The translations under genes were made by a program, and so were the position numbers. From assembly GCA_027858635.1 (NCBI GenBank), contig JAQICG010000192.1:1-28237 (forward strand): 28,237 bases of DNA, in the 5' to 3' direction. The notes beneath the pieces were generated by a model. It saw only the letters and a program-made list of their open reading frames with translations. It was not told the DNA's origin and made no database searches. Shown here in pieces: positions 3,965 through 22,002 of the stretch; position 1 is the first letter of the stretch, and each line of letters starts with the position of its first letter. Source of the stretch: Gammaproteobacteria bacterium (GTDB taxonomy: Bacteria; Pseudomonadota; Gammaproteobacteria; SZUA-229).

Positions 3965-4160
3965 AGGATGCGTATAAGTGTAACGGGCAGGGCTATTATG
4001 GGGAGCTCGCGGCAGGATGCAAGTCGCCTGTGGCGGCTGAATCTTCAGCAATGACAAAAGAAAGGGATTCCGCTATTCTAGCTACAGTTTGGATATGGCT
4101 GTGGCTTCGGTTCACAGTCATTAACGAATATTCAGCACCATTACAGCTTGAGGAACTATT

Positions 4161-5114
4161 ATGCAGGATTTATTTAATTTAATTTTTAATTTCTGGGTCG
4201 GGTTTGCGGTGCTGGCGATTGTGCTCGCCAAAACCTCGATCAAATTCGTGCCGCAGAATCGCGCCTACGTGGTCGAGCGTTTCGGTAAATACAACAAGAC
4301 CATGGTCGCGGGCCTGAATTTTCTCTTGCCCTTCTTCGATAAGATTGCCTACGAACGTTCCCTGAAAGAGCAGGCTTTTGACGTGCCCAGCCAGGCGGCG
4401 ATTACGCGCGATAATATTTCCCTGATCGTCGATGGCGTGCTCTACCTCAAGGTGCTGGACCCCTACAAGGCTTCATACGGGGTGGATGATTATGTTTACG
4501 CCGTCACCCAGCTGGCGCAAACCACCATGCGCAGTGAGATCGGCAAGATCGAGCTGGATAAAACCTTCGAGGAACGCGAGGTGCTGAACATTAATATAGT
4601 GGCGTCGATCAATGAAGCCGCAGGCCCCTGGGGTGTGCAGGTAATGCGTTACGAAATCAAGGACATCGAACCGCCTCGCACCGTGCTGGAAGCCATGGAA
4701 CGGCAGATGAAGGCCGAGCGTGAGAAGCGCGCGGTGATTCTGGAATCGGAAGGCGACCGACAGTCGGCGATCAATGTGGCCCAGGGTAACAAGCAGTCCA
4801 TCGTGCTGGCGGCCGAAGCGGACAGGGAACAGCAGATTCTGCGTGCTGAAGGTGAGGCGCAGGCGATTATTGCCGTGGCCGAAGCCAAAGCCCGAGCGCT
4901 GGAAGTGGTCGGTAATGTTGCCATTGAGGAAAGAGGTCAGAAAGCGATTCAGCTGGATCTGGCCAGTCAGGCCATCGCCGCGAAAGAGGCCATTGCCAGA
5001 CAGTCTTCAGTGGTGCTGCTGAGCGATGAGAAAACCGGCGCCGCCAATGTCGTGGCTGAGGCGATGACGATTATCAATATGCTGAATAAAAACAAGCCCG
5101 GTGATGCTTCATGA
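4161..5114 (+). CDS. SPFH/band 7 (stomatin-like) membrane protein
   Basis: N-terminal TM segment, VVERFGKY, PSQAAITRDN, AGPWG and coiled-coil QMKAEREKRA. GAGGAA Shine-Dalgarno upstream. Confidence 0.93.
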   Translation: MQDLFNLIFNFWVGFAVLAIVLAKTSIKFVPQNRAYVVERFGKYNKTMVAGLNFLLPFFDKIAYERSLKEQAFDVPSQAAITRDNISLIVDGVLYLKVLDPYKASYGVDDYVYAVTQLAQTTMRSEIGKIELDKTFEEREVLNINIVASINEAAGPWGVQVMRYEIKDIEPPRTVLEAMERQMKAEREKRAVILESEGDRQSAINVAQGNKQSIVLAAEADREQQILRAEGEAQAIIAVAEAKARALEVVGNVAIEERGQKAIQLDLASQAIAAKEAIARQSSVVLLSDEKTGAANVVAEAMTIINMLNKNKPGDAS

Positions 5115-5584
5115 TCGAGTACATTCAATCGCACCAGTCCGGCTTCTGGATTACCGCGGGCTTTATCCTGCTGGCGGCGGAAGCGCTAGTGTTCGGCTTC
5201 GCCACCATCATCATCCTGTTCGCCGGCATCGGCGCGCTGATAACCGGCCTGCTGATGGCGGTGGGTGTGCTGCCCGAGACCTGGATAGCAGGCGTCTCCA
5301 GCTTCGGCCTCTCCACCGGAATAGTCAGCATGCTGCTGTGGAAACCGATGCGCCGATTGCAGAACGACAACGTCTCCCCCCAGAGTAACAGCAGCGATCT
5401 GATTGGCTATGAGTTCGTGCTGCAGGAAGATATCAGCCCGATGAAAACTGGCCATCACCGCTATTCCGGTATCGACTGGACCATTGAACTGGACCCGAGT
5501 GCAGCGACAGACAGCCTGTTAGCCGGACAGCGGGTGAGAGTGGTCTCGGTGGACGCGGGTATTTTTAGAGTGAAATCGGTTTGA
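5111..5584 (+). CDS. NfeD-family membrane protein, partner of the SPFH protein
   Basis: Three hydrophobic segments (FW...LLAAE) then an OB-fold-like tail (LIG...G..W...GQRVRVVSVD). ATGA overlap with the SPFH stop; the canonical SPFH-NfeD pairing. Confidence 0.9.
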   Translation: MIEYIQSHQSGFWITAGFILLAAEALVFGFATIIILFAGIGALITGLLMAVGVLPETWIAGVSSFGLSTGIVSMLLWKPMRRLQNDNVSPQSNSSDLIGYEFVLQEDISPMKTGHHRYSGIDWTIELDPSAATDSLLAGQRVRVVSVDAGIFRVKSV

Positions 5585-5604
5585 GAAGTGCGGGTAGGTA
5601 AAAA

Positions 5605-5862
5605 CATTCACCGCAGAGGCGCGGAGAAATTCCTGTTTGGTTATGAAATCTTATTCAGCGTTGCAAAAATTCGAACAAGTTCACATTAGCACCGTAGGTT
5701 GGGTTAGGCGTTTTTTGCCGTAACCCAACATTTGCAAACCCGTCGGGCTTCATAAAAAACATTCAGCCCAACCTACAATAGATTTTGATTTTCCTCTGCG
5801 TTCTCTGCGACCTCTGCGGTAAAAGGCTTTTAAAACATTCAAAGATTTTCTCTGCGGTGAAC
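5605..5862. repeat. GCAGAG inverted-repeat family, locus 1 (arms 5605-5629 +, 5793-5822 -, 5850-5861 -)
   Basis: CATTCACCGCAGAGGCGCGGAG and the complementary CTCTGCGTTCTCTGCGACCTCTGCGGT and CTCTGCGGTGAA. Same family as 22472-22578 and 26001-26106; lies between convergent genes. Confidence 0.85.
5694..5776. repeat. Inverted doublet of GTAG-type REP sequences (REPIN-like)
   Basis: GTAG-GTTGGGTTA-N14-TAACCCAAC at 5694-5729 (+) and GTAG-GTTGGGCT...AGCCCGAC at 5742-5776 (-), separated by 12 bp. Confidence 0.8.
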
Positions 5863-5901
5863 AAGGTTTGTTACATACGTTCAAATAAAAGCCAATAATG
5901 C

Positions 5902-6369
5902 TCAGGCCTCAAAGTCTCTGATCACGCCGGTGACTATGCCCAGAACCTGCACCTCTTCGTTCTTCAGTCGAATCGCTTCCATCTCCGGGTTGGCGGGTTG
6001 CAGGCGGATGCCGTCGGCTTCAATGTAGAATTTTTTCAGCGTCACCTGTTCGTCATTAATCAGCGCAACCACTGACTGGCCGTTTTCCGCCCATTCGCGT
6101 TTTTCCACGATAATAATGTCACCATCCTGAATGTTGTCGTCCACCATGGAGTGGCCGGTGACTCTCAGCGCGTAGGTGTTTTTGCGCACCATATTGGCGG
6201 GTATCTTGACGCGCTCGTTCTGCTCCACCCGTTCGATGGGCTGACCGGCTGTGATGCAGCCCAGCAGGGGGATTTCGAGCATTTCGATGGTTTCGATTTC
6301 AGCTTCATCGAGACCTTCGATCCAGGTGGGGCGCTGATGCTTGGGGATAAGTAGGCTTACATTTTTCAT
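5902..6369 (-). CDS. LexA-like S24 peptidase domain protein lacking the N-terminal DNA-binding domain
   Basis: IPLLGCITAGQP (Ala41-Gly42 cleavage site), GHSM catalytic Ser, TLKK catalytic Lys, LQPANP. Only about 30 aa precede the domain, and an in-frame stop lies 3 codons upstream of the ATG. Confidence 0.85.
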   Translation of the reverse strand: MKNVSLLIPKHQRPTWIEGLDEAEIETIEMLEIPLLGCITAGQPIERVEQNERVKIPANMVRKNTYALRVTGHSMVDDNIQDGDIIIVEKREWAENGQSVVALINDEQVTLKKFYIEADGIRLQPANPEMEAIRLKNEEVQVLGIVTGVIRDFEA

Positions 6370-11884: not shown

Positions 11885-12228
11885 TTAAAACACCTGTACC
11901 TTATCGGCATTGATAGTCTGTTCGGCAAGTTCTTTCATGGTGCTGCGCCGGGCGCCTTCGATGATCTCTTCATCAGTAACGCCGCGCGCGTCCATGCAGG
12001 TGCCGCAGAGCAGTACCGTACCGTTACGCAATACCGCCTTGAGCATCAGCTCGATGCTATAAAAACCTTTTGGCACTTTCTGGTCGTGTTTGCGCAGCTC
12101 ACGCCATCAGCTATTAAAAATACGGTGACGCTGGCATCGGCGGCAATCAGCGCCTTGGCCAGGCGCAGGCCGTTATAACTGCGCTCGTTACCATAGGGAG
12201 GTTCATTGATGATGATCAGGGTGTTCAT
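11885..12228 (-). pseudogene. DsrE/DsrF-like (YchN-type) protein with a -1 frameshift
   Basis: N-half IIINEPPYGNERSYNGLRLA..VFLIADGV and C-half PKGFYSIELML..LCGTCMDARG..ADKVQVF. Adding one base to the TTT run at 12089-12091 joins them into 114 aa. GGAG precedes ATG 12228. Confidence 0.85.
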
Positions 12229-12357
12229 AGTCATTCTCCGTCATGTCTGCTTCAGTCAGTTTTTATCAAGTTGCTGCAGTATCTATAACATGTATCTCAT
12301 TGAGTAAACACGCCGTATAAACGGGGGAGTCACCGGGAAATATATACAGGTTTCATT

Positions 12358-13665: not shown

Positions 13666-14469
13666 TTATTTATCGGCATCGCCCGTGTTCTGTTGCCTAT
13701 TGCTGATGAAACCCTTGATGCGCAGCAGATCCCCGTCCAGCGCTGGCTGACCGTGCCACCACTGGTAATCCGGGGACTGGTGGAAGGCGCCGAGATAGAC
13801 GTTGCGCAGGTGTTTTTTCGTCTGTTGCATGAGGCCGGTGAGCTCGGCATCGGCCGGTGCCTGATGTTCATTGGCATACTCACCAACCAGCTGCCGGGCC
13901 TCGCGAACTTTCATCCGGGCAATCTCGATCATGCTCACGGCATTGTCATTGAGCCGGTTAATGTAACTGATGCCATGGCAATCAAGGCAGCTGCCGGCAA
14001 TGCGATCCATGTCCGTCTCTGCCGGCTTGAGCGGTTTGGCTTTTGCGGTTAAATGATTGCCATAGTGAAAATGGCAATAGGCGCAGCCCGGCGCCCGGTA
14101 GTTGGCTTCGCGTAGCGGCTGGTTCCAGTCATAATTTTTCTGCTCCAGCTGCATGATAATGCCGTGCTTGGAGGTGGCGTAACTGTGCACCACCGGCGAT
14201 GTGCCGCCGCCGTGGCAGTCAACGCAGCTATCATTGCGCCGACTGCGAGCCGCCGCCCCCTGGTGATCACGGCCATGACAGCTGGTGCAGAGCGCCACCG
14301 GTTTGGTGGAGGCGTGAACGCTCTGTTGCCAGTCGGCCACCAGTGTGGGCTCGGTGGACTGGTGACAGGTGATGCACTCTTCGTGGCTGAAATCCCCCTG
14401 TACGGCCTCCCGGCTTTCTGCGTAGGAGAATGGCAGCAGACAGGTCAGCAGAAATAATGGGCGCAGCAT
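13666..14469 (-). CDS. Periplasmic pentaheme cytochrome c, truncated HAO-family paralog
   Basis: Signal peptide; five CxxCH (CITCH, CTSCH, CVDCH, CAYCH, CLDCH); SKHG, DW..PL...NY.AP.CAYCH and GAFHQSPDYQWWHG. TGATG overlap with the upstream gene. Confidence 0.88.
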   Translation of the reverse strand: MLRPLFLLTCLLPFSYAESREAVQGDFSHEECITCHQSTEPTLVADWQQSVHASTKPVALCTSCHGRDHQGAAARSRRNDSCVDCHGGGTSPVVHSYATSKHGIIMQLEQKNYDWNQPLREANYRAPGCAYCHFHYGNHLTAKAKPLKPAETDMDRIAGSCLDCHGISYINRLNDNAVSMIEIARMKVREARQLVGEYANEHQAPADAELTGLMQQTKKHLRNVYLGAFHQSPDYQWWHGQPALDGDLLRIKGFISNRQQNTGDADK

Positions 14470-15806
14470 CAGTTATGCTCCCGGTTGTATTCGGTGTATT
14501 CGCCTTTCAACCAGATGTTTTCCGGATCGGTTTTATCCGCCTCGGTTTTGCCGGCGGCGCGGATGTTTGTGACTTTCCGCCTGATATCCTCAAGCTGTTG
14601 ATCCATGGCCTTATGGCCCTTGTTGATGAACGAAACATCGCCATGCGCCGAGCCTTTATAAGCACCGAGGTTACTGAAATACCACATATCAAAATAGTCA
14701 CGCTCGATCGGCGAGACGTTATAAAAAGCCGAAGCCTGACCTTCAAAGAAGCCGATGCGCTCGCGTTGCAGCAAGGTATGCGCGTCATCACCGGGATAGG
14801 GCGGGCGCTGATGAATCGAGGGCGACAGCAGATCATCGGAGCGCAGGCCTTTTAACAGGGCTTCGGCTTCATCCAGTTTGCTCCACGCCTGCTTGCGTTC
14901 CCGGTCCATGGCGCTCAGTTGTTGTGCCGACCACTCGGCTTCGTGGCAATCGCTGCACAGTTCGATCCACTGCTGGCGTTTGACGACATTGCCGGAACTG
15001 AGCGGGTTGATCTGCTTGATGCCGAATTTCCAGATGGACTTGTCCGCCACCTGATGCTTGCCTTCGCTCATGTGACAGTAGGCGCAGGTGGGTGCAGGAT
15101 AATTGCCTTTCTGCAGGGGTTTGGACCAGTCCCAGTCCTGGCCCTCATTCAGATAAAGCTGGCCGTGGGCGGAGTTGAAATAGGTCTCATCGTCCGGGTG
15201 CGGCGGGCCGCTGTGGCAGGTGATGCAGGCTTCCGGCCGGCGCGCTTCGGCGGCGCTGAATTTGTGCCGGCTGTGGCAGGAGTCGCATTTGGTCGCCACC
15301 GAATGGCATTGCAAACAGGCGGTAACTTCGGCCTTGGGTTTATCGACAAAATGTTTGGCGTCCAGCGCCCGCTCCATGGCCAGGGCGTGGCTGGGAAAGC
15401 CGTAGCGTTTTTCATCCATGAACTGATCGTGCTGGGTGGCATGGCAGGTGGCGCAAATATCCGGCGTCGGCAGGTGCAGGTTCTGATGGTCACTGCCGTG
15501 GCAGGCGCTGCAATAGACTTTGGGTTCGGCCTGCGCATGGCGTGAAGCCTGCCAGTCCTTGACGATGCCGGGGCTCATATCACGATGGCAGGCGACACAC
15601 TCTTCGCCCTCGAATTCACCCACTACCGTATCCACCGACTGGTAAAAATCATCCGGATTCCAGTAGCCGAAAACCGCTTCCGGCAACCAGTCGCGTGAAT
15701 ACAGGCCGGCGCCGTCGCCGCTCTTGCTCCAGTCTACATACCAGAAACCGGCGGGAATCAGGATGCTGAGGATGAGCAGGGTGATCCAGATATAGGCCAG
15801 ACGCAT
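14469..15806 (-). CDS. Octaheme cytochrome c of the hydroxylamine oxidoreductase (HAO) structural family, N-terminally membrane anchored
   Basis: Eight CxxCH (CVACH, CSACH, CATCH, CLQCH, CDSCH, CITCH, CAYCH, CSDCH) and the family signature CDSCHSRHKFSAAEARRPEACITCH..Y..S.HG. Hydrophobic N-terminus. Confidence 0.9.
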   Translation of the reverse strand: MRLAYIWITLLILSILIPAGFWYVDWSKSGDGAGLYSRDWLPEAVFGYWNPDDFYQSVDTVVGEFEGEECVACHRDMSPGIVKDWQASRHAQAEPKVYCSACHGSDHQNLHLPTPDICATCHATQHDQFMDEKRYGFPSHALAMERALDAKHFVDKPKAEVTACLQCHSVATKCDSCHSRHKFSAAEARRPEACITCHSGPPHPDDETYFNSAHGQLYLNEGQDWDWSKPLQKGNYPAPTCAYCHMSEGKHQVADKSIWKFGIKQINPLSSGNVVKRQQWIELCSDCHEAEWSAQQLSAMDRERKQAWSKLDEAEALLKGLRSDDLLSPSIHQRPPYPGDDAHTLLQRERIGFFEGQASAFYNVSPIERDYFDMWYFSNLGAYKGSAHGDVSFINKGHKAMDQQLEDIRRKVTNIRAAGKTEADKTDPENIWLKGEYTEYNREHN

Positions 15807-18992: not shown

Positions 18993-19346
18993 CTAGAACA
19001 CCATCACCTGATCGCTGTCTTTGACCCAGGCCGCCAGTGCTTTCATCGAGCCGCGCTCGATACCGGGAATCATGGTGGCTTCATCAATGGCGCAATCGTT
19101 CAGGGACATGCCGCAGGCGCGCACCTCGAGGCCGCACTCCATCAGCTCGGCCAGCAGCTCTTCCAGATTCACCGCGCCTGCGGGTGGCTGCTGGTTAATG
19201 CGGCCGACCTCAACACCATTATCCAGCAGGTGTACGCGCACCACCATGTCTTCAGTCAGGGCGGCGCCGGCAAAACGCAACGCGTGCCAGGCCTTGTTGT
19301 CGGCTTGATAGGGGGCGTTTTGAATAACGACAGTGACGGTACTCAT
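18993..19346 (-). CDS. DsrE/DsrF-family protein (putative sulfur carrier)
   Basis: VVIQNAPY..ALRFA..VHLLDNGV, the conserved Cys in VRACG, and SMKALAAWVKDSDQVMVF. TAATG overlap with tauE. Confidence 0.88.
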   Translation of the reverse strand: MSTVTVVIQNAPYQADNKAWHALRFAGAALTEDMVVRVHLLDNGVEVGRINQQPPAGAVNLEELLAELMECGLEVRACGMSLNDCAIDEATMIPGIERGSMKALAAWVKDSDQVMVF

Positions 19347-20131
19347 TATGAAAACTCCTGGATTAGTTGCTGGATTAATATGTAACTGGCGACCAGTAAC
19401 AGGAAGATGCCAAAGCCTTTTTTCAGCAGGGCAGCGGGCAGGCGATGCGCCAGATGGCTGCCGGCCAGACTGCCGACGATAGCGATCAGGGTAAAGGTAG
19501 CCATGAGCGAATAGTCGATCGCCACCGCGCCGGCATAGCCAGCAAAACCGGCCACCGATTTCAGGGTGACGATGCCCAGCGATGTGCCTACCGCCTGTTT
19601 CATGGGCAGGCCGGATAGCAGGACCAGTGCCGGCACAATCAGAAAGCCGCCGCCAACACCCACCAGCCCGGTGAGTACGCCGATGGCAATGCCGTGAACA
19701 GCAATTTCACGGTAATTCAGGTCATCGCAAAAACCGTCTGCGCATTCGGTACTGGCGGCGCCGACCGATTTGTGCAGAGCGACCGGTTTGAGCATTCTCC
19801 AGGCGGCGAGGTACATTACCAGCGCGAACAGGGTGAGCTGGATAAAGACCGGGGTGATTACGCCCAGACGCGCACCGGCATAGGTGCCGAGTACGCCAAA
19901 CAGACCAAAAACAAGGGTGACCTTCATGTTGACGTTGCCGCGATGCCAGTGCTGTAGCGCAGTGATGCCGGCGGTAATGGCGACAATGCCCAGGCTCATG
20001 GCGATGGCCGATTTGGGCTCGACATCCAGCAGGTAAAGCAGTGCCGGCACGGTAACGATGGAACCACCACTACCGAAAATGCCGAGTAACACACCGGTCA
20101 TAATACCGGCCACAATGACAGCGAAAGACAT
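19346..20131 (-). CDS. TauE/SafE (TSUP) sulfite-exporter-family transporter
   Basis: Duplicated G-rich motifs [16 protein letters not shown] and [21 protein letters not shown], and about 8 TM segments. Confidence 0.92.
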
Positions 20132-20143
20132 GTTAAATACTCA

Positions 20144-21121
20144 CTATTGATTAATGGGATAACCCTGTTTATTCCAGTCGACCATGCCCATCTTCACCAC
20201 GTGCACATCGGCAAAGCCGTGCTGCGCCAGCAGCTGCGCCGCCTGCGAGGACATTTTGTCGGTGCGGCAGATGGTGAGCACCGGCTGTTCCAGATAACCG
20301 CCCAGTTCATCCAGGCGCTGCGGCAGTTCGTTGAGCGGAATGTGGGTGGCCTCGGCAATGTGGCCGAGATCGCCGTGGTAACCCTCTTCAGGGCGCACAT
20401 CCAGCAGCAGCAGTTTTTCGCCGGTATCCAGCCGCTGCTTGAGCTGCTCGGTGCTGACCATGGGTTTGCGGCGCAGCATGGCGATCAGCCGGGGCAAAAA
20501 GCCCACCACAGCCAGCAGGGCGATGGCCAGCAGGATCTTCTGGATCATGCCTTCACCACCGGCGATGGCCTCCTTACCGGCGTAACCCAGATAGGTGTAG
20601 GCGATGGCACCGGGCAGCATGCAGACATAGGTGGCGATGCTGTACTGGGCGAAACTGATGCGGGTCAGGCCCAGCGCGTAGTTCAGCAGGTTGAACGGGA
20701 ACAGCGGCACCAGCCGGGTGAAAGCGACAAAGCGCCAGCCCTCGTTTTCCACACCGGAGACCAGCTGTTTCATTTTGCCGCCGGTCTGAGCATCCATTTT
20801 TTTGGCCACCCAGTCGGCGGCCAGATAGCGCGCCACCAGAAATGAGAGCATGGCGCCCACCGTGGCGGCGGTTAGATTATAAAAAGTACCCCAGTAAGGT
20901 CCGAACAGGGCGCCGCCGAGCAGGGTAAGTAGTGAGCCGGGCAGGAAAAAAACCGCACCCAGCGCGTAGATCACCATGAACAAAATCGGCGCGGCACCAC
21001 CGGCGCTCTGAATCCACTGTTCCAGTGCGTCGGCATTGATCTGATCCCGGTACATCACGACAATGGCAATGCCAGTGAGCAGTATCAGTGCCAGTAGCAG
21101 TTTGGTAGTCGTATTTTTCAT
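20144..21121 (-). CDS. VTT/TVP38 (DedA-like) membrane domain fused to a C-terminal rhodanese
   Basis: FFLPGSLLTLLGGALFG, RLVPLFPFNLLNYALG and LPG..AY; then LLDVR..E..GHI..A.HIP and the active-site loop ICRTDKMS. TAATG overlap at 21121. Confidence 0.92.
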   Translation of the reverse strand: MKNTTTKLLLALILLTGIAIVVMYRDQINADALEQWIQSAGGAAPILFMVIYALGAVFFLPGSLLTLLGGALFGPYWGTFYNLTAATVGAMLSFLVARYLAADWVAKKMDAQTGGKMKQLVSGVENEGWRFVAFTRLVPLFPFNLLNYALGLTRISFAQYSIATYVCMLPGAIAYTYLGYAGKEAIAGGEGMIQKILLAIALLAVVGFLPRLIAMLRRKPMVSTEQLKQRLDTGEKLLLLDVRPEEGYHGDLGHIAEATHIPLNELPQRLDELGGYLEQPVLTICRTDKMSSQAAQLLAQHGFADVHVVKMGMVDWNKQGYPINQ

Positions 21122-22002
21122 TATTTGTTGTCCTCAGAATCGTCCTCGGAATCTTCTGTCCACTGACGGCGGTTAATGGTGTAACCGCTCACCTTGCCGG
21201 TAAAAGGCATGACCAGCAGGCCGGTGATCCAGGAGGACTGTCTGGTTGTGCGGAAATTTCTGATGCCGATGGTCATGCCCAGATGGCCCGCGCGCGGCTG
21301 GTCGCGGTAGGTGCCGAGCAGACGATCCCACCAGCTCAGGTTGAAACCGAAATTGCTGTTGGTCTCATCATCTTCAATGGAGTGGTGCACGCGGTGCATG
21401 TCCGGAGTGACGACGAACCAGCGCAGGAACCTGTCCAGCGCCGGTGGCAGTCCGACATTGCCGTGGTTGAACATGGACATGGCGTTGAGCACTACTTCAA
21501 AAATGACGACCGCCACTACGGGTGCACCGATGACTACAATGGTGGCGAACTTGATCACCATCGACAGCAGAATCTCAATTGGATGAAAGCGCGCGCCGGT
21601 GGTCAGGTCAAAATCCAGATCGGCATGGTGCACCCGGTGCAGTCGCCACAGCGCAGGTACAGCGTGCACCATGACATGCTGCAAATAGATGATCAGATCC
21701 ATTATCACCACCGAGAGGATGATGGTCACGGCCAGCGGCAACTGGAAATAGTTAAACAGCCCCCAGCCCTGTTGGCTGACGAAGGCGGCCATGCCCACTG
21801 CGGCGGCAGGAAAAATCAGACGCAATAGAATAGTGTTAAAAAATACCAGTCCCAGATTATTGCCCCAACGCAGAGCCTTGGAAACCGTTAGTGCACGTTT
21901 GGGGGCGAGCACTTCCCAGAGTGCCATGATCGCCAGCACGCCCAGAAAAAAACTCAGACGGATGGTTTGTTCGTGTTGGGCAATTGAGTTAATCAGGTTC
22001 AT
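21121..22002 (-). CDS. Sterol desaturase / fatty acid hydroxylase superfamily membrane di-iron protein
   Basis: His boxes HVMVH, LHRVHH, FNHGN and MHRVHHS, plus NFGFNLSWWDRLLGTY and several TM segments. Confidence 0.92.
   Translation of the reverse strand: MNLINSIAQHEQTIRLSFFLGVLAIMALWEVLAPKRALTVSKALRWGNNLGLVFFNTILLRLIFPAAAVGMAAFVSQQGWGLFNYFQLPLAVTIILSVVIMDLIIYLQHVMVHAVPALWRLHRVHHADLDFDLTTGARFHPIEILLSMVIKFATIVVIGAPVVAVVIFEVVLNAMSMFNHGNVGLPPALDRFLRWFVVTPDMHRVHHSIEDDETNSNFGFNLSWWDRLLGTYRDQPRAGHLGMTIGIRNFRTTRQSSWITGLLVMPFTGKVSGYTINRRQWTEDSEDDSEDNK

Follow-up and report, generated by a model that had tools for sequence, protein, structure and literature searches.

A contig of 28,237 nucleotides from a gammaproteobacterium of the SZUA-229 lineage (JAQICG010000192.1; the window, in what follows, is this whole stretch) carries on its minus strand two adjoining genes for multihaem c-type cytochromes of the HAO family, one for an octahaem protein of 445 residues (P0001, 14469..15806) and one for a pentahaem protein of 267 residues with a Sec-type signal peptide (P0002, 13666..14469). 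The principal finding is that the smaller protein belongs to an old and conserved family which lacks the segment with haems 3, 4 and 5, including the catalytic haem, and that the two genes are found together in many Gammaproteobacteria that oxidise sulfur, in Magnetococcales, and in symbionts of tubeworms and lucinids.

Of several possible explanations for such a pair, we favour one that we consider quite probable. The 267-residue protein would be a non-catalytic, all-bis-His pentahaem electron-transfer protein that originated once, by excision of the haem 3-4-5 segment from an HAO-family octahaem. It would be exported to the periplasm and produced in step with a membrane-anchored octahaem by way of a one-base stop/start overlap, and would act as the octahaem's dedicated redox partner, passing electrons between a membrane NapH-GltD module (with or without a dihaem cytochrome) and the haem network of the octahaem. 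Because the octahaem lacks the Tyr cross-link, electrons would most likely flow towards it and reduce a nitrogen or sulfur compound in the periplasm. Enzymes of the HAO family have a central place in the nitrogen cycle, and the direction in which they work is believed to be determined by their quaternary structure and Tyr cross-link. The pair would represent a natural example of module pruning that yields a partner protein and not a new enzyme, and it hints at a periplasmic redox system, so far uncharacterised, that is connected to a NapH-GltD fusion.

Homology, haem loss and age of the pentahaem family

Both open reading frames named in the original prediction are present with the haem counts given there, the eight CxxCH of P0001 being located at residues 70, 99, 118, 164, 174, 194, 241 and 284, and the five of P0002 at residues 32, 61, 82, 129 and 161. 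P0001 is a member of the HAO/HDH octahaem family, as it scores 143 bits against PF13447 (cut-off 21.9) with its eight motifs in the family order, and among solved structures it comes closest to anammox HOX, HAO-like and HDH chains (E 1e-59 to 1e-64). P0002 scores 53 bits against the same model and, with only five CxxCH, is without the eight haems and the catalytic haem 4 of this family. The shared motifs that had been pointed out can all be read in the translations (EECVACH/EECITCH, DWQASRHA/DWQQSVHA, CSACHGSDH/CTSCHGRDH and the S.HG..DW..PL...NY.AP.CAYCH block). A direct BLASTP comparison of the two proteins gave two significant segments (E 2e-21 and 5e-17), and an hhalign comparison of the small-protein family (alignment A3, 73 sequences) with the large-protein family (A2, 23 sequences) covered the whole small protein with a probability of 100 and an E-value of 6.4e-47.

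The predicted absence of some 70–75 residues carrying haems 3–5, the catalytic one among them, appears in the hhalign result as a gap of 74 residues (residues 110–183 of the large protein), which also contains two invariant distal His, H140 and H181. In the small gene the corresponding deletion junction lies between codons 71 and 72 (14254..14259, minus strand). Two further losses had not been mentioned before: a second gap of about 30 residues (about 325–360 of P0001), and the conserved C-terminal tail of the large protein, both missing from P0002. Within this tail, P0001 residues 432–445 (W..GEYT.(Y/F)NRE.N) are near-invariant in the large family and partly present in anammox HOX (FW.HGEY), with no counterpart in the small protein.

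The junction is a hybrid: the spacing of the second haem motif in the small protein (CHG.DH) is that of large haem 2, but the linker after it (AAxxRR) is the one found after large haem 5. For this reason BLAST aligns small haem 2 to either large haem 2 or large haem 5. The five haems retained in P0002 are the homologues of large haems 1, 2, 6, 7 and 8. A pairing of small haems 3–4 with large haems 3–4, as offered by the second BLAST segment, was rejected as an effect of the internal repeat in HAO, since the alignment to haems 6–7 is far stronger and is the one chosen by hhalign.

The distribution of His residues follows the same pattern. The large family has eight haems and eight invariant His outside the motifs, seven of them candidate distal ligands and the eighth being H203 in the sequence GPPH. 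Exactly five homologous His are kept in the small family, with H52, H102, H139 and H230 invariant and H69 conserved in at least 90%, and there is a Ser at the position of the active-site His H203. Five haems with five retained His, combined with the exchange of H203 for Ser, fit five electron-transfer haems that would all be bis-His ligated, and we infer that P0002 has no catalytic site.

An AlphaFold2 (AF2) model of P0002 (predicted local distance difference test, pLDDT, 87.5; predicted template modelling score 0.81) was compared with solved structures using Foldseek and VIA-align. Strong matches were restricted to HAO-family structures, with VIA-align Z scores of 16–18 to nine HAO-family chains compared to about 9 for NrfA. 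In two fits of low root-mean-square deviation (3.4 angstroms; 6t5e and 6hif), model residues 15–267 superimpose onto chain residues from about 143–149 onward, and the N-terminal dihaem module is modelled against the haem-6 region, not at the position of HAO haems 1–2. Together with the hybrid junction, these fits suggest a continuous five-haem wire in which the second haem would be close to the haem-5 site.

The loss of haems from octahaem ancestors is a recognised way in which multihaem cytochromes evolve, as for NrfA and c554 (PMC9250108). The outcome seen here differs from that in NrfA, however, as NrfA keeps the catalytic haem (its haems equal HAO haems 4–8), while the small protein keeps haems 1, 2, 6, 7 and 8 and has lost the catalytic one. 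In family-model searches P0002 had no significant match to the NrfA family, and the NrfB models also remained below their cut-offs (TIGR03146, 23.4 bits vs 166.6; PF22678, 18.8 vs 27).

The pentahaem form is widely conserved. A word-indexed search returned 677 relatives, and all 120 among the matches listed have a length of 245–322 residues and exactly five CxxCH. An exhaustive HMMER search set about 20 cluster representatives with E below 1e-30 apart from full-length octahaems, which begin at E 1e-24, and 10 of the 11 full-length representatives in the first group have five CxxCH, the remaining one having four. Orthologs with eight haems, which a local deletion in the small gene would have left in other genomes, are absent among the 131 full-length relatives counted, as 130 have five motifs and one has four; the small protein is not a local deletion. 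The family is also under purifying selection, with ratios of non-synonymous to synonymous substitution rates (dN/dS) relative to two close relatives of 0.20–0.27 for the small gene and 0.10–0.14 for the large gene. Both expectations of the original prediction, a conserved five-haem form and selective constraint, are therefore borne out. In the AlphaFold DB the small family makes up one fold cluster named only ‘Uncharacterized protein’, and its ESM Atlas cluster of 161 members has no functional name. One of the HMMER representatives, P0153, is a HOX-like protein of 448 residues with seven CxxCH, where the haem-4 motif reads FALRH and the catalytic haem attachment seems to be missing.

When 81 HAO-family sequences were placed in a tree, those of the small family formed one clade (support 100, starred) on a long stem, and pruning therefore occurred once and long ago. 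The clade falls inside a starred group that also contains the P0001 family and anammox HOX-, HDH- and HAOr-like proteins, but the adjacent octahaem family is not resolved as its sister. A recent tandem duplication is ruled out by the long stem and by the lack of a resolved sister relation to the neighbouring family. The two proteins had been described as a paralog pair, which is correct as regards their homology but not if read as a recent duplication, the small family being an old lineage of single origin.

With hundreds of members that have five intact haem motifs and conserved ligands, a dN/dS of about 0.2, and a single old origin followed by presence in several proteobacterial orders, the small protein can hardly be a decaying or functionless octahaem duplicate generated by local deletion. 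The missing catalytic haem, and a degraded copy in one complete genome (see below), would be in line with such an explanation, but we attach practically no probability to it.

Linkage to the octahaem and the question of a heteromer

We analysed 80 loci from species-representative genomes, which were retrieved by patterns from a conserved loop of the small protein. Their hosts include Thioalkalispiraceae, Thiogranum, Thiohalobacter, Sulfuricaulis, Sedimenticola, Thiodiazotropha, the symbionts of Lamellibrachia and Escarpia, Magnetococcales, Hydrogenophilales and others. Where the upstream DNA is long enough, nearly every locus is arranged as NapH-GltD, optional dihaem cytochrome, octahaem, pentahaem, the NapH-GltD fusion itself being found upstream in most loci with enough flank. 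In 56 of the 62 loci where both genes are complete, the stop codon of the octahaem gene shares one base with a start codon of the small gene, as in the window (TGATG at 14467..14471, minus strand). The two proteins co-diverge (r = 0.82 for their pairwise distances), with the small protein evolving 1.65 times faster. The dihaem cytochrome was found by tblastn in 38 of the 80 loci and is considered an optional member of the cluster, because many other loci have only about 300 bases between the NapH-GltD and octahaem genes, which leaves no room for it.

Linkage was also evident when 150 families from the same class were sampled, five genomes of this set carrying the small gene. Four of these have an intact octahaem orthologue, which is adjacent in three cases and at a contig end in the fourth. 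In the fifth, a complete one-contig genome (G046; locus L092 = C1:2089500-2097500, about 4000–6250), the octahaem is broken across three frames and the pentahaem is reduced to three CxxCH and has a frameshift, with NapH-GltD upstream still intact, so that the pair is decaying together. A different situation was noted in the Lamellibrachia barhami endosymbiont (L061:3960-5830), where the octahaem frame is split into parts of 291 and 380 residues next to an intact pentahaem, and this may be a pseudogene or a sequencing error.

One observation in favour of a fixed interface is the distribution of sequence conservation within the two families. P0002 residues 230–252 (HQSPDYQWWHGQPALDGDLLRIK; 13714..13782, minus strand), consisting of a loop and the start of a helix, show 96% identity across the 73 sequences as against 53% for the whole small protein, while the homologous stretch in the large family shows 43% as against 69% overall. 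These values were obtained from protein sets of other searches, including the HMMER representatives, because the genomic loci had been fished with loop patterns and loop conservation is biased within them. In HAO, the homologous segment carries the residue that reaches the catalytic haem of the neighbouring subunit (PMC8042395). According to the summary given in PMC8940962, this residue is a Tyr in oxidative members and a Trp in epsilon-Hao. The ‘donor’ loop is thus kept by the non-catalytic protein and is degenerate in the catalytic one, as would be expected if the two shared the work within a heteromer. With this uneven loop conservation as the main hint, and the one-base coupling, the distance correlation and the joint decay in G046 as further indirect indications, a physical heteromer of octahaem and pentahaem is plausible, with the chances about evenly divided between a stable complex and transient docking.

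The original prediction knew of no heteromeric architecture in the HAO family, but such complexes are not new to it, as Kustc0458 of Kuenenia stuttgartiensis and the dihaem Kustc0457 form an alpha6beta6 complex (PDB 6h5l; PMC8042395); what is new is a pruned paralog as the partner. The two systems are alike in having an HAO-family octahaem without the Tyr cross-link and a small c-type cytochrome encoded next door, and Kustc0458/0457 is a precedent that counts for a stable cytochrome partner on a reductive HAO. The Kuenenia octahaem and its dihaem partner are made and purified together, in a complex that extends the haem network. Furthermore, the small protein's loop is similar to the WWW loop of Kustc0458, which has HAQQDVSWWWGQAP at this position. 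There are also differences. Kustc0457 is an unrelated dihaem cytochrome, whereas the partner in the present case would be a pruned paralog with five haems in an HAO fold. Kustc0458 has the sequence GPDH in place of GPPH, the octahaem described here has an N-terminal hydrophobic helix, and the host is a sulfur-oxidising proteobacterium and not an anammox bacterium. The literature searched (full text) describes neither a pentahaem derivative of HAO that is devoid of the catalytic haem nor such a protein paired with an octahaem and NapH-GltD, and the pentahaem family is apparently undescribed.

It might be supposed that the small protein donates a cross-link Tyr in trans. Tyr235 is 93% conserved but is at position +5 from the distal His, whereas the Tyr of HOX and HDH is at +8; there the small protein has Trp237/238, as in reductive HAOs, except for a His in one member with an adjacent octahaem. 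We rejected this candidate, and the residues at these positions make a P460-type cross-link from the small protein unlikely.

A bolder version of the heteromer, which we put forward tentatively and with more doubt than confidence, is an obligate one with the active site completed in trans. The octahaem, deprived of the loop by which HAO trimers cap the active site of a neighbour, would provide the catalytic haem, and the pentahaem, itself without a catalytic haem, would provide this loop in almost invariant form (HQSPDYQWWHG...) and a five-haem wire. The result would be a 13-haem unit (15 with the dihaem) at the periplasmic end of an NAD(P)H- or quinol-linked NapH-GltD conduit, with a nitrogen oxide or a sulfur compound as its substrate in sulfur oxidisers and chemosynthetic symbionts. 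A sulfur compound is included because rhodanese, DsrE and TauE neighbours recur. If each active site were completed by a pruned paralog, a quaternary arrangement other than the classical homotrimer would be required.

A serious rival to a bound partner of any kind is a freely diffusing periplasmic shuttle, comparable to c554 for HAO or NrfB for NrfA, which would make no more than brief contacts with the octahaem, and perhaps with other acceptors, without being a subunit. The pairs NrfB–NrfA and HAO–c554 are precedents, as in each of them a multihaem carrier supplies electrons to a catalytic multihaem enzyme or takes them from it. A shuttle would be consistent with the cleavable-looking signal peptide of P0002, which has no anchor while the octahaem and the dihaem look anchored, with orphan copies in two genomes that have only distant HAO-like octahaems, and with the faster evolution of the pentahaem. 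As the frequent one-base coupling and a near-invariant loop at the HAO inter-subunit contact fit a fixed interface better, we allow the shuttle a minority share of the probability.

Several points, besides the bias in the loop-derived loci, weigh against the dedicated redox partner that we favour. A pentahaem without a P0001-type octahaem occurs in Halobeggiatoa and in a Magnetococcales metagenome-assembled genome (MAG), where only distant HAO-like genes were found, and the partner may therefore not be exclusive. The AF2 model of P0002 contains no haems, and the model of the large protein was poor (pLDDT 66). RNA runs from the same spring studies contained none of the stretch, and no transcript evidence was found.

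As to the surroundings of the two orphans, the pentahaem gene of Halobeggiatoa (L048:2085-2966) is surrounded by unrelated genes, and that of the Magnetococcales MAG (L073:1147-2031) comes immediately after a VTT-rhodanese gene, its product having Asp at the position of Tyr235.

The pentahaem might also have a separate function, such as binding or turnover of a small molecule at one of its haems, or service to another terminal enzyme, the operon being merely shared. The family has an extra conserved His (H220) and the conserved Tyr235 without an assigned role, one orphan copy lies beside VTT-rhodanese, and some loci add a further five-haem c554-like gene downstream. However, with five distal His for five haems no coordination site is obviously free, the His of the active site has gone, and near-universal synteny with the octahaem, co-divergence and joint decay in one genome all connect the protein to its neighbour, which makes a separate function improbable, although less so than a decaying duplicate. 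The further five-haem open reading frames mentioned here have 405–457 residues and occur right after the pentahaem gene (L014:6831-8162, L019:6820-8193, L051:6834-8051 and L052:6834-8129); the two that were scanned, those of L014 and L051, have weak cytochrome c554/c7 matches.

Catalytic type of the octahaem

The oxidative enzymes HAO, HOX and HDH (Nitrosomonas HAO, 1fgj; Kuenenia HOX, 4n4j; HDH, 6hif) have the same fold and the same order of haem motifs, and are the best matches for both proteins. They consist of three identical eight-haem subunits, or of multiples of such trimers, with a cross-link between Tyr and haem 4 holding the subunits together. The pair described here is unlike them in that the large protein has a deletion or varying residues in the Tyr column and haem 4 is missing from the small one.

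A single Tyr, located eight residues after the last distal His, is common to KsHOX (NQTY) and an HDH-like representative (DATY), and no other Tyr of the C-terminal stretch is shared by these two cross-linked enzymes. We take this to be the cross-link Tyr, an assumption based partly on residue arithmetic from the Tyr numbers of KsHOX and Nitrosomonas HAO. In the P0001 family (A2) this column is located beside a deletion of 2–3 residues and is occupied by Val, Ile or a variable residue, so that a conserved cross-link Tyr is lacking. A second characteristic of oxidative HAO, HOX and HDH is an Asp-His pair (GxDH), which sits in the distal pocket. It is seen as GKDH in the HDH-like P0161, as GVDH in P0185 and as GIDH in solved KsHOX, but is replaced by GPPH, following haem 6, throughout the P0001 family. 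Loss of the Tyr cross-link goes with reductive catalysis (PMC8042395, PMC12758564), and by this published rule P0001, having no cross-link Tyr, looks like a reductive-type enzyme with an altered pocket rather than a classical HAO. The claim that the larger protein is a catalytic, HAO-like octahaem can thus be retained as to its HAO-family membership, but not in the sense of a classical HAO.

Another octahaem HAO without the Tyr is epsilon-Hao of the Campylobacterota, which belongs to the reverse-HURM pathway, acts as a reductase and, in the summary of PMC8940962, has Trp at the Tyr position. The difference is that the Trp-bearing loop is found here in the small protein and not in the octahaem. 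Neither a pentahaem paralog nor a NapH-GltD fusion is reported together with epsilon-Hao in the literature searched. Identity of the octahaem with BOGUAY_0691 of orange Beggiatoa was considered and rejected, as the latter is described as a soluble protein of 511 residues with a different gene neighbourhood (PMC6449678); a search of the Halobeggiatoa genome revealed only distant HAO-like genes.

Gene row and host

The N-terminal hydrophobic helix of P0001 resembles a membrane anchor (residues 2–27 are helical in the AF2 model). Upstream of P0001, and likewise on the minus strand, is the gene for the dihaem c-type cytochrome P0003 (15809..16555), which has 248 residues, two CxxCH, a signal peptide and a C-terminal membrane helix. 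It has a weak match to Cytochrome_CBB3, and no similarity of this protein to Kustc0457 or any other solved chain was found. Next is P0004 (16537..18987, minus strand), a fusion of 816 residues that joins a NapH-like membrane polyferredoxin to a GltD-like FAD/NAD(P)H iron-sulfur flavoprotein (Pfam and NCBIfam; TIGR01318, 399 bits; NapH/MauN, 74 bits). Further upstream on the same strand (18993..22002), Pfam matches identify DsrE, TauE, VTT-rhodanese and a protein of the fatty-acid-hydroxylase family. When 6-kb flanks of the 80 loci were searched by tblastn, VTT-rhodanese was detected in 33, DsrE in 21, the fatty-acid hydroxylase in 20 and TauE in 8. The position 3' of the pentahaem gene in the window is occupied by an MFS transporter.

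With napA, cd1-type nir genes and a dsrA fragment in its genome, the host is a denitrifying sulfur oxidiser. The substrate of the octahaem may be either a nitrogen or a sulfur compound, and the evidence favours neither. Its identity could add a step of nitrogen or sulfur cycling in sulfidic habitats and in chemosynthetic symbioses.

A DsrE-like gene elsewhere in the window (11885-12234, minus strand) consists of two overlapping open reading frames in different frames (12046-12234 and 11885-12076). In a close relative (L001) both pieces are in one frame, which indicates a frameshift or an assembly error in the window.

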